From assembly GCA_964397435.1 (NCBI GenBank), contig CAYNHU010000001.1, positions 209 to 64,208 of the forward strand: 64,000 bases of DNA, written 5' to 3'. The DNA is from an uncultured Candidatus Saccharibacteria bacterium. Its GTDB lineage: Bacteria; Patescibacteriota; Minisyncoccia; Phycocordibacterales; UBA9973. A model generated the notes under the pieces. It searched no databases, was not told the origin of the DNA, and was given only the letters and a program-made list of their open reading frames with translations. Each line of letters begins with the position of its first letter. Within the stretch, counting starts at the first letter, position 1. Shown here one piece after another: positions 7,058 through 58,321 of this stretch. A program made the translations under genes and the position numbers.

Positions 7058-7086
7058 GCACTGCTTCACGCGGTGCTTTTTTATTG
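7058..7086 (+). terminator. Terminator hairpin (gcactgc-ttcac-gcggtgc + T-run)
   Basis: 7-bp stem with one G:U, followed by ttttttatt; read directly. Confidence 0.45.
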
Positions 7087-7125
7087 AAAAAAAGATGTTT
7101 TTCTGGTATCGTACAGAAGCTAACC

Positions 7126-7197
7126 GGTCCCATCGTCTAGTGGTTAGGACAGCGGGTTCTCAATCCGTTAACCGGAGTTCGACTCTCCGTGGGATCA
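7126..7197 (+). tRNA. tRNA-Glu (anticodon CUC)
   Basis: Cloverleaf by eye: acceptor GGTCCCA/TGGGATC, anticodon stem GCGGG/TCCGT (two G:U), loop TTCTCAA, T-arm CGGAG-TTCGACT-CTCCG; 72 nt. Confidence 0.8.
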
Positions 7198-7225
7198 CAA
7201 ATAATAGCTAGCACTAAAAAAAATA

Positions 7226-8041
7226 ATGCAACTCAACTCATTAAATTTAAATAGATTAAAAAAGACGCAAGAGGATTTATATAACTTTTTGGACAGGGAT
7301 GACTACATAGATGGAAGTGAAATTCGTCAGTGGATTTCAGAAAGCGTTGTTCACTTTACCGAACTCGGAGTGCCACAAAATATTATTCAGTTTTTCTTAG
7401 AAAAACTAGACTATAGAGACATTCAAAGTGACAGTAGATTGATTACTTCACAACCATCAGGAAGTCATGGTCCTTTCCTTTACCATGAGGGATTCGGATA
7501 CGAAATATCTCAAGAAAATAGATTAACAGGAAAAGAGGGTGGTAAAACTAAAATGACTCCTATTTTGGTTGCTTTTAAGGTTGCTGAAAATTTACTTTCA
7601 AAATATGAGGATACATTAAGATTAGTACCCATGACTTTAATTAATGAACTTGATAAATACAATGAAACAAAAACGATTTCAGTCTCACTATCAGCGATTC
7701 AGTCGTCATTCAATGAGAGGGACTCTAAGAAAATGTTATCGGCTTTAATTTCAACTACAGAGAGTTTGTTTAAATTAATCCCTGAAATTTTAGACACGGA
7801 AAAAATTGGACCAAAAATCAGAAAAATATATGATGATAAGAATATATATGAAAAATATTCAATTAATCGTGAGATATTATGGTCTCTAAATAACGCTAGG
7901 ATTATAAGAAATATAGACATACATAATCCTAATAAAGATAACGAGACTACTTTTTATGAAGCGGTAAGCTATGCTCATATAATTATTATATTAACTCTTT
8001 CTATGCTTAGCTCTGGGGGACTAACCTTAACAGAAGCATAG
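7226..8041 (+). CDS. Hypothetical protein with C-terminal Rx4H (HEPN-like) motif; candidate abortive-infection/RNase-type protein
   Basis: 271-aa ORF in a markedly AT-rich islet; C-terminal ARIIRNIDIHNP matches the R-N-x3-H hallmark of HEPN domains; assignment by motif only. Confidence 0.35.
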   Translation: MQLNSLNLNRLKKTQEDLYNFLDRDDYIDGSEIRQWISESVVHFTELGVPQNIIQFFLEKLDYRDIQSDSRLITSQPSGSHGPFLYHEGFGYEISQENRLTGKEGGKTKMTPILVAFKVAENLLSKYEDTLRLVPMTLINELDKYNETKTISVSLSAIQSSFNERDSKKMLSALISTTESLFKLIPEILDTEKIGPKIRKIYDDKNIYEKYSINREILWSLNNARIIRNIDIHNPNKDNETTFYEAVSYAHIIIILTLSMLSSGGLTLTEA

Positions 8042-8123
8042 AATCAACTGAATGCTCATATTTTAAAACTAACTATAAGGTATAAAACCTTTTAGATACT
8101 TTATTTTAGTATATAATACCCTT

Positions 8124-8570
8124 ATGAAAGACTTTCTTAAAAAGAACACACGTTGGGTTGTTTTTGCGATTTTTGCTGTCGCGTTAGATTTTCTACAAAG
8201 AGGATATTTTTTTACAATGTTCTTTGTTTACGCTTTATTTATAAATTTTTTAGCGTCGGGTTTTTTGAAAGAAAAATTTAAAAAAATAGTAAACGCAGTT
8301 ATATTGGTTATTTTAATTTCTTCTTTTGGACTAACCGTGTACGTAAATTGGTATTTACCTCGTGGACCAATGATTGACACAGGAGAAACAGAGGAAGTTT
8401 GTATTGCCGATAATCGAGGTTGTAAAGAAGTAGAAAGATATGTAGAAGATACAAGAAATTTAGATATTCCTGAATGGGCTAAATTTCTTAAACGATATGG
8501 GTTAATGACACTTTTACTAATAGCTTTTGCATACATAGCGTCTACGAAAAAAGAAAAAATACATGAGTAA
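8124..8570 (+). CDS. Hypothetical small integral membrane protein
   Basis: 148 aa, 3-4 hydrophobic helices plus Cys-containing soluble segment; AT-rich islet. Confidence 0.45.
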   Translation: MKDFLKKNTRWVVFAIFAVALDFLQRGYFFTMFFVYALFINFLASGFLKEKFKKIVNAVILVILISSFGLTVYVNWYLPRGPMIDTGETEEVCIADNRGCKEVERYVEDTRNLDIPEWAKFLKRYGLMTLLLIAFAYIASTKKEKIHE

Positions 8571-8874
8571 CTTTATAAAAGAAAACTGGTTTAAACTTTT
8601 AGGAGTAATATTGCTTGTTATTGGAATTGCAGATCATCCATATAGCTATTATCAAATCTTGAGATGGTCAATCATGATAATTGCTGGTTACTCTGCTTAT
8701 TTATCAAATAAAAAGGATGACGAGGTTTGGTTTTGGATTTTTGCCATATTAGCCATTTTGTTCAATCCTATTATCCCGTTCTATTTTTCAAAAGACACTT
8801 GGCAGATTATCGATCTAGCTACTGCTGTTATTTTATTTGTTAATGTTATTGGTTTTAAAAAGTTACAAAAATAA
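8563..8874 (+). CDS. Hypothetical small integral membrane protein
   Basis: 103 aa, 3 TM helices; 8-nt overlap with upstream ORF. Confidence 0.45.
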   Translation: MSNFIKENWFKLLGVILLVIGIADHPYSYYQILRWSIMIIAGYSAYLSNKKDDEVWFWIFAILAILFNPIIPFYFSKDTWQIIDLATAVILFVNVIGFKKLQK

Positions 8875-8889
8875 TTTACTAGAAAAACT

Positions 8890-8929
8890 AAAAAGAGTGT
8901 CAGGGTAATACCCTGACACTCTTTTTAGT
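8890..8929. terminator. Bidirectional terminator, perfect 16-bp stem (aaaaagagtgtcaggg-taat-accctgacactcttttt)
   Basis: A-run/T-run flanked perfect hairpin between convergent islet genes and murF. Confidence 0.65.
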
Positions 8930-8944
8930 TTTATCTCTTCCCTT

Positions 8945-10249
8945 CTACCGCTTCTCCCATTCCTTCTCCTGTCGGACCAAGAGTTTGTGTGCTTGTTCGG
9001 GAGTTGCGAGAATTGCTTTTGTTGCGCGTTCGAGTCGTACACTCTGTGAGCCTTTGATCAGTACGAGATCGCCGCTTGTTACAGCTATGGTGAGATAGTC
9101 TGCTGCTTGTTCTGCGGTGTCAAAATGTTTCATCTTTGTTGTGTTGTAACCGGCAGCTTCTGCACCCTTGTCGATAAATGTTGCGCGGATACCAACAGTG
9201 ATGAGCATATCAACAGCACCTGGTACGAGACTACCAATTTTTTCGTGTGCTTCCTGAGTATATTTACCGAGTTCCATCATGTCGCCAAGTACTGCAATCT
9301 TGCGTCCTGGGACAGTGATTTCTTTGAGTAATGCAAGTGCAGACTCTACTGCGATTGGTGATGAATTGTAGGTGTCATCGATGATAGCTGAACCACGCAC
9401 GCCTGGCAAAAGTGAAAGACGTCCTGGTGGTGTGCGATATTCACGAAGTGCGAGCACTGCTTTTTCGAGATTGAATCCAAGTCCGTACACAACCGCGCAC
9501 GCTGCGAGTGCAGCAGCAATGTGACTTTCGCCGATGATATGTGGCATTGAAACAATGTACTGATATTCTGGAGTAACGAGTGTCCATTCACGTCCCGATG
9601 GAATCTTGTTTCCTGAACCATCATCAATGTAACTAAATTTTACCTGTGATGCACGAACAGGAACTGTTTCTTTGAAACCGTACGCAACTGTTTGTGCGCC
9701 ATATTTTCCAGCGAGTGCTGAAACGAGTGGATCGTCACCGTTTACCACAAGTAATCCCGATGCTTTGAGTGCTTGCGCGAGACTAGTTTTTTCTTCGATG
9801 ACATGTTCTTTGGATTCAAAAAATTCAATATGTACTGGTACATCAGGAAAACGAGTGAGCACCACAACATCAGGGTTCAACCATGGCGCAATGCCTTTGA
9901 TGTCCCCTGGTTTGTCAGCACCAACTTCAAGCACCAACCATTCTGGATATTTATGAGGAAAAACGATGAGCCACAAACCTTCGAGCAACGTTCGTGCCCA
10001 CAAGAGTGGATTAGTCCAACCGTTTGGAAGTCCAAGAATCGAAAGTGGTACACCCATCTCTGAGTTATAGCTTTTTTCACTACGACGAACATGGACGTAC
10101 GGTGCGAGAGCTGTGTAAATGGCGTCTTTGGTTGAAGTCTTGCCTACACTGCCTGTAATAGCCACTATTTTGGGTTTATAGCGCTTTATAACGGTTTTGG
10201 CTTCCCATGTCAGGATGGTGATAATAATGTGCTTAAAAAATGATTTCAT
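8945..10249 (-). CDS. murF: UDP-N-acetylmuramoyl-tripeptide--D-alanyl-D-alanine ligase
   Basis: Mur ligase P-loop (ITGSVGKTSTKD), Mur ligase middle and C-terminal domains; position in dcw cluster. Confidence 0.85.
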   Translation of the reverse strand: MKSFFKHIIITILTWEAKTVIKRYKPKIVAITGSVGKTSTKDAIYTALAPYVHVRRSEKSYNSEMGVPLSILGLPNGWTNPLLWARTLLEGLWLIVFPHKYPEWLVLEVGADKPGDIKGIAPWLNPDVVVLTRFPDVPVHIEFFESKEHVIEEKTSLAQALKASGLLVVNGDDPLVSALAGKYGAQTVAYGFKETVPVRASQVKFSYIDDGSGNKIPSGREWTLVTPEYQYIVSMPHIIGESHIAAALAACAVVYGLGFNLEKAVLALREYRTPPGRLSLLPGVRGSAIIDDTYNSSPIAVESALALLKEITVPGRKIAVLGDMMELGKYTQEAHEKIGSLVPGAVDMLITVGIRATFIDKGAEAAGYNTTKMKHFDTAEQAADYLTIAVTSGDLVLIKGSQSVRLERATKAILATPEQAHKLLVRQEKEWEKR

Positions 10250-46179: not shown

Positions 46180-47025
46180 TTACTTAATCTCTAGAAAGTC
46201 AATTTTGCGGTTATTCGCATACACTGGATTCAAGCTTGTACCCGCTTTGATAATCATCCGAACACTCGGATTTACTCCAGCAGGAAATGTTCTTAAAACA
46301 GTACAAGTTACCAGGTGTGGTTTATCACCTTGATGATAGTCCATGTTCGGTGTTCCCTGAAAAATTTCTCCTGTCGTTAGGCAATCAAATTTATAGTACA
46401 CACCTTCAGTATCTGCAGGATCAGCCCAGATATCAGCTTGGATAGTAATCCAAAATACAGAACTCGTGGTTGCATTACCAGGTAATGTATAGCTGGCGAC
46501 TGTGAAATCTGAATTCAGGTTTGTAGAAACTGTTGCAGTTTGCTCAAACGAACCCCAGCCAGAAACTAATCCTGTTGCACCTGTAGCACCAGTGGCACCA
46601 GTGACTCCAATGTTTCCTGTAGCGCCTGTGTTACCTATCGGATCTTGCGGGCCGGTAGGACCAGTGAGAATTGGCAACGTAAACGTTTGACCGTTACGCA
46701 AAACTACAACACCGTTGGGTAAAATAGTATCAATATCGTGCGCAGATTCTGCCGCATATAATGCATACGGCACACTCATAATTGGAGTAACACCCATAGC
46801 AACAGGTTGCCCTCCGCCGTTAATGTCGCACTCAACTAATAAATGTAAATCAGATTGCGCCCAATTGATACTACTAAATGTTTCAACAAGTGGTGTGCCT
46901 TTACCAATCCATGCCGTAAACAAACCAAATTGGTTTGTCATACAGGTATGTGTTTCAGAATATATCGGAAACGCTTGGTTGATACCATTCAGTATCGCAA
47001 ATTTAACCGGAATACTTTGGTTCAC
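46180..47025 (-). CDS. Collagen-like (Gly-X-Y) repeat surface protein, BclA-like three-part architecture
   Basis: N-domain, then 13 G-X-Y triplets (GPTGPQDPIGNTGATGNIGVTGATGATGATG), then a C-terminal beta-rich domain of about 120 aa; the first in-frame start is GTG. Confidence 0.55.
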   Translation of the reverse strand: MNQSIPVKFAILNGINQAFPIYSETHTCMTNQFGLFTAWIGKGTPLVETFSSINWAQSDLHLLVECDINGGGQPVAMGVTPIMSVPYALYAAESAHDIDTILPNGVVVLRNGQTFTLPILTGPTGPQDPIGNTGATGNIGVTGATGATGATGLVSGWGSFEQTATVSTNLNSDFTVASYTLPGNATTSSVFWITIQADIWADPADTEGVYYKFDCLTTGEIFQGTPNMDYHQGDKPHLVTCTVLRTFPAGVNPSVRMIIKAGTSLNPVYANNRKIDFLEIK

Positions 47026-47382: not shown

Positions 47383-47796
47383 CTATCTCAACACAAACAA
47401 AAAATCCCGTACAGGATTTTTTGTTTGGTGCAGCGTAGTAGCGGTTAACTGATCTTTCGTAATAAACCAAAACATTATAATAAGAAACGATAATGCAATA
47501 GTTGTTTTTTGAAAGGTAGTTAATTCTACGTGAAGCTTCTTTTGAAGAATTAATTTTGGAATGAGAACTAATGTGACTACCCAAACACTTGCAACGGCAG
47601 TCGTTAGACCGATATTAGCCGTGTAACTCCATCCGAGAGTCTTGGTATACATATAAAATGCAAGCGGAAAAGTAAACGAGATAATTATAAATGTGGCAGG
47701 AGGTGGCTGTACCTCCTCCCGTAAAATCTGGTAACAATACCAGAAACTGCCAGCCATCATGATGACTGCGGCAATCCAAACGGTTATGAGGTACAT
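47383..47796 (-). CDS. Hypothetical integral membrane protein (4 TM)
   Basis: 137-aa ORF. Confidence 0.45.
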   Translation of the reverse strand: MYLITVWIAAVIMMAGSFWYCYQILREEVQPPPATFIIISFTFPLAFYMYTKTLGWSYTANIGLTTAVASVWVVTLVLIPKLILQKKLHVELTTFQKTTIALSFLIIMFWFITKDQLTATTLHQTKNPVRDFLFVLR

Positions 47797-47912
47797 TCGA
47801 TCTCCTTTTTGTTTTTAACGAATTAGGCAAAATAGCCTAGGTAGATAGTAACATATTAAAATATGTTTGTCAATACAAAATACCCTTATTTAATAAGGGT
47901 ATTTTGTGAGTG

Positions 47913-47995
47913 TGCGCCGGGGAGGATTCGAACCTCCGTAGCCCGAAGGCGTTTGATTTACAGTCAAATGCAATTGACCACTCTGCCACCGACGC
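47913..47995 (-). tRNA. tRNA-Tyr (anticodon GUA)
   Basis: Cloverleaf by eye: anticodon loop CTGTAAA, long variable arm (bacterial type II tRNA); 83 nt. Confidence 0.85.
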
Positions 47996-57607: not shown

Positions 57608-58057
57608 ATGGCACACAGAAAAGGGAAAGTTCAAATCACCTGGAATGCCAATTTTGCCTATGTGCTTGGTATTATTGCTGCTGATGGAAATCTTTCTCCT
57701 GACGGCAGGCATATCAATATCACATCAAAAGATTACGAACTGGTTTTAAAATGCAAAAAATCTCTCGGTTTAAAAAATAAAATCGGCCGCAAGGCACGAG
57801 GAGGATCAATAAATAAAAAATATTCTGTTCTTCAATTTGGTGATATTGTTTTCTATAATTTTCTGATCAAGATTAGTTTTACTCCAAATAAATCACGTAC
57901 ACTCTCAAAAATACAACTGCCTCAACAATATTTCAGAGATTTTTTACGTGGATGTATTGATGGCGATGGAAGTATTAGTATTTCCAGACATCCTGAAAGT
58001 AATCATGATCAATATAAGATACGTCTTTGCTCAGGTAGCAGAAAATTTTTAGTTTGA
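57608..58057 (+). CDS. LAGLIDADG-family homing endonuclease, two-motif monomeric type, apparently truncated by an in-frame TGA (frame stays open to 58252)
   Basis: Motif 1 LGIIAADGNL and motif 2 LRGCIDGDGSIS; after TGA at 58055 the same frame continues for 64 codons into tRNA-Leu(UAG); AT-rich. Confidence 0.65.
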   Translation: MAHRKGKVQITWNANFAYVLGIIAADGNLSPDGRHINITSKDYELVLKCKKSLGLKNKIGRKARGGSINKKYSVLQFGDIVFYNFLIKISFTPNKSRTLSKIQLPQQYFRDFLRGCIDGDGSISISRHPESNHDQYKIRLCSGSRKFLV

Positions 58058-58237
58058 GTATTACAACAATGCAGAGAGATGTGTTCACCTATTAAAGGTT
58101 CAATACACCCACAAAATCAATCAAATATACATATACTCGTATTTGCCAAACATGATAGTGTAAAAATGTTACGTTGGATATATCATGAAAATGTGGTATG
58201 TTTATCAAGGAAAAAGAACGTAGCAGACAGAATTTTA

Positions 58238-58321
58238 GGGCAAGTGGCGTAATTGGTAGCCGCACTGCGCTTAGGACGCAGCGAGAGTAATCTCATGGGA
58301 GTTCGAGTCTCCCCTTGCCCA
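58238..58321 (+). tRNA. tRNA-Leu (anticodon UAG)
   Basis: Cloverleaf by eye: anticodon loop CTTAGGA, long variable arm; 84 nt. Confidence 0.85.

Follow-up and report, generated by a model that had tools for sequence, protein, structure and literature searches.

The locus described here lies in a stretch of 64,000 nucleotides, hereafter the window, of contig CAYNHU010000001.1 (assembly GCA_964397435.1) from an uncultured Candidatus Saccharibacteria bacterium. It consists of an AT-rich islet at positions 7200-8900, lodged between a tRNA-Glu gene and murF, whose first gene codes for a 271-aa HEPN-like protein. The tRNA-Glu(CTC) gene, host-native and without encoded CCA, occupies 7126-7198 on the plus strand (ARAGORN; Rfam tRNA, 58.5 bits) and is preceded on the same strand by a promoter-like site with an extended -10 (TTGAAA-17-TGgTATCGT, 7084-7112). 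A terminator-free AT-rich junction of 27 nt (7199-7225, +) leads to the 271-aa gene (7226-8041, +), in which codons 7907-7924 specify R228-N229-I-D-I-H233, a predicted RNase active-site motif of the form R-N-x3-H. Still on the plus strand follows a two-gene cassette coding for a 148-aa polytopic membrane protein (8124-8570) and a 103-aa membrane protein of the DUF6804 family (8563-8874), the two genes overlapping by 8 nt. The distal edge of the AT-rich segment is marked by a perfect 24-nt inverted repeat (8884-8932), a bidirectional intrinsic terminator common to the islet and to the convergent murF gene (8945-10249, minus strand). An Rfam scan recovered the tRNA only, every other sub-threshold match falling on the terminator hairpin. 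The initial annotation had correctly laid out the 271-aa open reading frame (ORF) and the two overlapping small polytopic membrane proteins behind it, and had proposed that together they form a horizontally acquired defence or toxin module next to the tRNA.

The drop in GC content on which that proposal was based is pronounced. The GC content of the 7200-8900 segment is 0.302, the mean of the window being 0.423 (sd 0.023, z = -5.4). This is the minimum among all 1.7-kb windows of the 64 kb, and the profile falls from about 0.42-0.45 outside to 0.27-0.34 within approximately 7200-8900. Synonymous sites follow the same trend, since GC at third codon positions (GC3) is 0.26, 0.21 and 0.28 in the three islet genes against 0.37-0.42 in murF, uvrA and ftsI, so that both measures of composition are anomalous. 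The drop starts at the 3' end of tRNA-Glu, where it had been placed, except that the tRNA ends at 7198 and not at 7197.

Comparison with related genomes shows how this boundary arose. The two closest ones (MurF 75-76% identical) keep the same neighbourhood of ftsI-murF, tRNA-Glu and uvrA and lack the family gene. In the relative L014, a terminator hairpin and then four unrelated genes come after a tRNA-Glu identical to that of the window at 73/73 positions, and in L015, L017 and L021 a terminator also stands immediately 3' of tRNA-Glu. The window lacks this terminator and its AT-rich gene begins 27 nt past the tRNA, which locates the insertion boundary at the tRNA 3' end. Moreover, the family gene is markedly richer in AT than the DNA of its host in 11 of 12 loci (e.g. 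GC 0.34 vs 0.505), and presence/absence polymorphism coincides with foreign composition at the same tRNA among relatives, as is characteristic of a tRNA-targeted island. The segment is therefore acquired, not ancestral: rather than being conserved at this locus, it is replaced in the closest genomes by other genes or by just the terminator downstream of the identical tRNA-Glu, which bears out the horizontal acquisition proposed initially.

Two other observations concern the same tRNA. The strand of tRNA-Glu(CTC) relative to murF is the same in L015, L016, L017 and L021 and the opposite in the window, L014 and L018, which indicates local inversions around this tRNA near murF. The Logan contig L001 shares the tRNA-Glu, the junction, the HEPN gene and the downstream genes of the window; its tRNA (122-194, corresponding to window 7126-7198) has the anticodon TTC where the window has CTC, and is preceded by 60 nt that differ completely. 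The cause could be a polymorphism between strains, recombination of two tRNA-Glu genes that are nearly identical, or a chimeric assembly at a repeated tRNA.

The islet is foreign DNA, yet not of one piece. Both membrane proteins display several hydrophobic segments. The 103-aa protein matches DUF6804 (PF20619) over profile positions 2-90 of 91 with 100.3 bits (cutoff 27, E = 7e-29), a family on which no literature was found, and the 148-aa protein, which matched no curated family, has four detected relatives. In two of the loci retrieved, L102 and L103, the gene for a 65%-identical copy of the 148-aa protein is likewise overlapped at its end by a 103-aa DUF6804 gene; the pair stands immediately behind a tRNA 3' end, and neither contig has a HEPN gene. 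The DNA of L102 is 74% identical to window 8084-8897, the similarity starting in the intergenic region past the HEPN gene and stopping at the terminator. It includes the region upstream of the cassette (8084-8123, +; TTTATTTTAGTATATAAT), which is conserved in L102/L103 and may act as its promoter. Conversely, neither membrane gene occurs at the other 15 distinct family loci. Thus, the membrane pair is an independent cassette, unrelated to the HEPN gene, and the islet is a mosaic of two unrelated cassettes; reading the HEPN and membrane proteins as one module, as had been done initially, does not hold (0/15 other loci with the pair, which recurs without HEPN in L102/L103). With a whole-contig GC of 0.29 in L102/L103, a donor of low GC content is probable for the cassette. 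That an islet defined by its composition can be such a mosaic is a warning against inferring function from adjacency.

The start of the cassette shows two further particularities. L102 (1-45) and L103 (1-37) begin with a tRNA 3'-end-like sequence with encoded CCA (CGCGGTCCGATTCCGCGTGGGGTCACCA), about 60 nt before the cassette. In the window, a TATAAT box lies only about 6 nt 5' of the ATG of the 148-aa gene (8104-8126, TTTAGTATATAATACCCTTATG), a spacing kept in L102, which suggests that the cassette mRNA is leaderless or nearly so.

The 271-aa protein found no match in Pfam, NCBIfam, PADLOC or PHROGs, and PDB sequence and profile searches with it returned noise only. Its relatives, taken as 21 or as 75 sequences, gave nothing significant in the same four collections: a single member of the 75 reached E = 7.8e-4 with Abi_2 (PF07751), short of the Pfam threshold, another weak match linked one member to PADLOC AbiD (E = 2.6e-3), and AbiJ was likewise seen weakly in a single member. 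A word-indexed search of 5.8 billion proteins yielded 21 relatives, all metagenomic, the sole named one belonging to Candidatus Pacebacteria. When 1.84 billion representatives of clusters at 50% identity were searched exhaustively with a profile, only 87 were found; a word-indexed profile search with the 75-sequence alignment had P0078 as the only addition among the matches listed, and a related-locus search with a closer alignment led to five metagenome loci. No homologs were found in phage and plasmid collections by tblastn and by a pattern scan of viral contigs. These proteins constitute a small and previously uncatalogued HEPN-like family which, as far as visible, is restricted to Patescibacteria. 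At the P0078 locus (L097-L099), the family member and its neighbours of a type I restriction-modification (R-M) system are intact only when TGA is read as sense. The 13 TGA codons found in frame there fall for the most part on W-like positions, which points to a host with code 4/25, for example one of the Gracilibacteria or Absconditabacteria.

The protein is composed of an N-terminal family-specific domain (residues 1-107, helices and a small beta unit), in which W36 and F57 are almost invariant in the 75-sequence alignment, and of a C-terminal all-alpha HEPN-like domain (108-271). In the 21-sequence alignment N222, N223, R225, R228, N229 and H233 are invariant. In the 75-sequence alignment, despite a mean column identity of 23%, R228 is found in 75/75 members and N229 in 74/75, the remaining one having D at this position; no member lacks the histidine, which stands at +5 in 15 and at +6 in 60, giving R-N-x(3,4)-H, and R225 is kept in 71/75. 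The RNase site of HEPN proteins has been defined as R-x(4-6)-H with a polar residue (N, D or H) right after R, positioned at the end of the penultimate helix or the start of the loop leading to the last one (PMC3710099). The family conforms to this definition in spacing (75/75) and in the residue after R (N in 74, D in 1), and both AlphaFold models, being predicted structures, place the motif accordingly. The Rx4H motif pointed out in the initial annotation is therefore a genuine signature of the whole family, HEPN-like in placement and in predicted fold. The protein does not, however, end with it: the motif ARIIRNIDIHNP spans residues 224-235 of 271 and one further 20-residue helix comes behind. 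Another feature of HEPN sites is a conserved upstream acidic residue, often in E-x3-[KR], near the active site, for which the alignment alone offers D/E129 (84%, with K/R132 at 84%), E179 (81%) and E216 (91%).

The AlphaFold2 model of the window protein (predicted local distance difference test, pLDDT, 82) begins with helices, followed by a linker predicted as disordered and a small beta unit; the C-terminal domain is all-alpha. There, R228 closes helix 215-228, H233 belongs to the loop behind it, and the bundle is completed by the last helix (243-263). An independent model of P0078, a member only 22% identical (pLDDT 88, predicted template modelling score 0.79), has the same layout with helix 224-241, a loop and helix 254-274. 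In a Foldseek search of PDB with the window model, the top two matches are the HEPN proteins 2hsb (prob 0.92, target-normalised template modelling score, TM, 0.56) and 1o3u, the HepT toxin 7ae6 and 2q00 appearing lower in the list. With the P0078 model 2hsb is also the best geometric fit (target-normalised TM 0.68, 3.3 A root-mean-square deviation over 122 of 126 residues), and the list contains Csx1, Csm6 and AbiA as well. Although the E-values of these matches are not significant, the C-terminal domain is, according to these models, a probable HEPN-fold, RNA-cutting domain. Checking the protein against HEPN and Abi families, as had been recommended, gave no Abi_2 profile match for the window protein and did give a predicted HEPN-like fold. 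As a separate matter, the hydrophobic last helix (245-269) was considered as a membrane anchor and rejected, both models burying it with high confidence as core helix 4.

Family members were then compared for their gene contexts, counted over 16 distinct family loci, five of which have defence neighbours. In L003-L005, the closest homolog (71% identical to the window protein) lies 43 nt 3' of a gene for a 620-aa AAA_15/AAA_21 ATPase. This ATPase matches GajA (2e-21) and AriA (2e-20) best and an OLD-type TOPRIM weakly. Two divergent members are embedded, at the position denoted X, in type I R-M operons: Fic-HsdM-X-HsdS-Schlafen/AlbA_2-HsdR in L097-L099 (22% identity) and HsdM-AbiTii-X-HsdS-DUF3800-DUF3800-HsdR in L108 (23%). 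In L105, the member (48%) lies 3' of a type III-like R-M pair composed of N6_N4 methylase and ResIII protein. That of L011-13 (42%) belongs to an island with a diversity-generating retroelement, a methylase, a GIY-YIG nuclease and a resolvase. At the remaining loci the neighbours are housekeeping genes only (e.g. RecR, ClpB, IF-2, CysS). No conserved antitoxin-like partner, either MNT or small ORF, is present across the 16 loci. An OLD/GajA-type ATPase adjoins the family gene in L003-L005 only, and tblastn with the L003 ATPase detects neither such a gene nor remnants of it in the window. R-M operon embedding has been described for the Abi2/AbiD/AbiF HEPN clade (PMC3710099), and it is a validated predictor of defence function (bioRxiv 10.1101/2024.01.29.577857). 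These contexts of the homologs, with two type I R-M operons, one type III-like R-M pair and one OLD/GajA-like ATPase, make it likely that the protein serves as an RNase in defence or as a toxin, and this part of the initial proposal gains support. The ATPase and the HEPN-family protein of L003, for their part, represent a candidate two-gene defence system not listed by PADLOC. This pair (L003 8095-10819; also L004 and L005) resides in an AT-rich islet as well, with a GC content of about 0.32 vs 0.445, downstream of a tRNA-Glu(TTC).

The adjacency to tRNA-Glu, which the initial annotation had noticed in the window and which is confirmed there, turns out to recur across the family, something that a single locus could not reveal. 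A survey combining a hidden Markov model scan and ARAGORN over the family loci places a tRNA-Glu upstream of, and co-oriented with, the family gene in 8/16 of them. The gap is 9-102 nt in six: 27 nt in the window and L001 (CTC; TTC in L001), 9 nt in L008 (CTC), 34 nt in both L094 and L095 (CTC), 25 nt in L104 (TTC) and 102 nt in L100 (TTC). In the other two, a terminator and the ATPase gene (L003, TTC) or three small genes (L106, CTC) stand in between. An upstream tRNA neighbour of any other type was never seen in the 16 loci. The proteins of the linked loci are 24-70% identical, their tRNAs are host-specific (CCA being encoded in some and not in others) and their upstream flanks are unrelated. 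On a rough estimate of about 2 tRNA-Glu per ~700-1000 genes, some 0.05 immediate adjacencies would be expected by chance for 16 loci, against six observed. A motif of the AGCTAG type is found both in the window junction (7199-7225) and in those of L094, L095 and L104.

As already stated initially for the window, there is neither an integrase gene among its ORFs nor a direct repeat of the tRNA 3' end. The same is true more broadly: no repeat of at least 11 nt was found downstream in nine loci, that is, the window and eight other family loci, and no integrase. The classical mechanism of tRNA-island integration is therefore unsupported. Since gaps of 9-34 nt leave no room for a separate promoter or terminator, the 271-aa gene is most likely transcribed together with the tRNA, by read-through from the tRNA-Glu promoter. 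Judging from the sequence, the site at 7084-7112 is probably the only promoter available to it, and TGGTATAGT-type boxes are also present upstream of tRNA-Glu in L001 and L008. Two explanations remain for the linkage: a tRNA-Glu-specific insertion hotspot for promoterless cassettes, or a functional tie in which the tRNA is a target or a cis regulator.

Among characterised proteins, the family resembles Abi2/AbiD/AbiF (Abi_2, PF07751), of the Abi2/Swt1 clade of Anantharaman et al. 2013, and the 271-aa protein is probably related to these single-gene HEPN abortive infection (Abi) proteins. Both are stand-alone and of similar size, with a non-catalytic N-terminus and a C-terminal HEPN domain carrying 'RN...H', and they share R-M operon embedding of members, patchy distribution and AT-rich composition. 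In contrast, the family is without significant profile match (the window protein does not reach the curated threshold of the Abi_2/AbiD/AbiF profiles), has another N-terminal domain, is found in Patescibacteria only and shows a recurrent tRNA-Glu location not reported for Abi_2. Minimal HEPN and HepT proteins (2hsb AF_0298, 1o3u TM0613, 7ae6 HepT) provide the best structural matches to the C-terminal domain and have Rx4H at about 70-75% along the domain. Yet no MNT or antitoxin gene is adjacent at any family locus, the family protein is twice as long owing to its extra N-terminal domain, sequence identity is 9-13%, and the canonical H, retained here, is typically lacking in the 2hsb group (PMC3710099). 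PrrC and RloC are HEPN-type RNases lying between hsd genes, as do P0078 and the L108 member. Their substrate is tRNA, PrrC acting on tRNA-Lys, as does RloC, and this could relate to the tRNA-Glu linkage of the family; however, they possess an N-terminal ABC-type ATPase domain which is absent here, no sequence similarity was detected, and the window copy is outside an R-M locus. The position of the L003-L005 homolog just past its GajA/AriA-like ATPase suggests a pair of sensor ATPase and effector in the manner of OLD, Gabija and PARIS. Known partners in such systems are nevertheless a UvrD helicase (Gabija), the Toprim AriB (PARIS) or the HNH protein PtuB (Septu) and not HEPN proteins, and an ATPase of this kind is missing from the window and from most other loci. 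Finally, tRNA-associated islands share with this one foreign composition, insertion exactly at the tRNA 3' end and variable cargo in relatives, but here integrase and att repeat (9 loci) are absent, the segment measures only 1.7 kb, and the cargo gene consistently comes first, in the orientation of the tRNA.

Taken together, we consider it reasonably probable that two independent foreign pieces lie 3' of the host tRNA-Glu(CTC), an Abi-like HEPN RNase gene and an unrelated membrane cassette. The first piece (7199-8041) would be a promoterless single gene, whose product is most likely a stand-alone Abi-type or toxin-type HEPN RNase controlled by its N-terminal domain. Its composition, insertion boundary, motif conservation, predicted fold and contexts are what the analysis shows; its activity, trigger and substrate, along with co-transcription and a defence role, we infer. 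The C-terminal domain would be a metal-independent RNase with R228, N229 and H233 as catalytic residues, and the family-specific N-terminal domain could serve as sensor or regulator. The mRNA would arise by read-through from the tRNA-Glu promoter and be freed by tRNA 3' processing. By analogy with AbiD/AbiF/Abi_2-type proteins and R-M-embedded RNases, the protein would stay inactive until a phage cue, upon which dimerisation or opening of the HEPN site might allow cleavage of cellular or phage RNA and lead to growth arrest. The second piece (8084-8897) would be the two-gene membrane cassette of the 148-aa protein and DUF6804, without part in this scheme.

The tRNA linkage itself feeds another, rather unlikely, explanation, that of a tRNA-Glu-coupled system, in which the protein would be a tRNA-Glu-specific anticodon nuclease or the tRNA moiety would act as a cis regulator or RNA antitoxin in a layout like that of type III toxin-antitoxin systems. 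The always co-oriented association with tRNA-Glu only (8/16 loci, six gaps of 9-102 nt) across clades 24-70% identical with unrelated upstream flanks speaks for it, as do the lack of att duplication (at least 11 nt, 9 loci) and of integrase, unusual for tRNA-targeted islands, and the existence of HEPN anticodon nucleases (PMC3710099). A cis link cannot be obligatory, however, since half of the family loci are without nearby tRNA; the adjoining tRNA is a normal gene of the host and is the same in relatives that lack the system; and in L003 a terminator and an ATPase gene, in L106 three genes, stand between the two. In addition, relatives carry other cargo at the same tRNA-Glu site, which fits a general insertion hotspot, and no precedent was found in the literature. 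If such coupling were true, a promoterless cassette would take over the tRNA-Glu transcription unit, and tRNA-Glu would be either the cleavage target, a new anticodon nuclease specificity, or a restraining cis RNA; this would make a tRNA-linked RNase immunity module without protein antitoxin, spreading independently of integrase among candidate-phyla bacteria.

Co-transcription with a tRNA is also typical of RNA-metabolism genes. The protein might accordingly be a housekeeping or ancestral RNA-processing factor of Patescibacteria, inherited vertically with tRNA-Glu, often lost and foreign to defence, as would agree with the confinement to one bacterial radiation, the many loci with housekeeping neighbours only (RecR, ClpB, IF-2, CysS) and the junction motif common to the closest clade, which suggests that the tRNA-gene pair was inherited together. 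This is very improbable given the extreme patchiness (87 clusters at 50% identity in 1.84 billion proteins), the missing gene at the same locus of the two closest genomes, the foreign composition in 11/12 hosts down to synonymous sites and the repeated R-M operon embedding. We regard as very improbable that the protein is not a nuclease, its bundle being merely HEPN-like and R, N and H serving to bind a ligand or a protein, as they would in HEPN proteins without catalysis or in other proteins of four helices. What weighs against an RNase here is that no profile match and no Foldseek E-value for the HEPN matches, with either model, is significant, and that the best match, 2hsb, comes from the HEPN-T group, whose members typically lack the canonical H (PMC3710099); the near-absolute conservation of R, N and H at 23% mean column identity is, on the other side, the signature of a catalytic site. 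Partnerships of HEPN and membrane proteins exist elsewhere, e.g. Cas13b with Csx27 and Csx28, and the three islet genes are adjacent, on the same strand, all AT-rich and closed by one terminator. A three-gene defence or toxin module, with the membrane proteins as effectors or immunity factors of the HEPN protein, is all the same already largely refuted and has a minimal probability, in view of the 15 other loci devoid of either membrane gene and of the HEPN-less pair in L102/L103, where DNA homology begins only at 8084.

In the reading that we prefer, of an Abi-like HEPN gene next to an unrelated membrane cassette, the family deserves attention in several respects. Little is known of the defence systems of Patescibacteria (candidate phyla radiation), and the family escapes PADLOC, Pfam, NCBIfam and PHROGs. 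Its invariant motif, its two confident models and its contexts of defence type make it suitable for experiments straight away. Its recurrent placement behind tRNA-Glu, without att site or integrase, is reproducible and unexplained by current models of island integration, and may point to a new mode of expressing, controlling or targeting an RNase toxin.

Other parts of the window also show small AT-rich patches near tRNA genes. A 149-aa ORF with two LAGLIDADG-like motifs (GIIAADGN and GCIDGDGS; 57608-58057, +), in a patch with a GC content of about 0.33, sits between tRNA-Leu(taa) and tRNA-Leu(tag) and is possibly a free-standing or degenerate homing endonuclease in a tRNA cluster; the 57-aa ORF after it (58079-58252) is perhaps its C-terminus, split off. 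A 137-aa polytopic membrane ORF (47383-47796, -) in a patch with a GC content of about 0.34 adjoins tRNA-Tyr (47912-47995) and forms a second small low-GC islet next to a tRNA in the window. Finally, a 281-aa ORF at 46180-47025 (-) contains a run of G-x-T repeats (GPTGPQDPIGNTGATGNIGVTGATGATGATG), collagen-like or tail-fibre-like.

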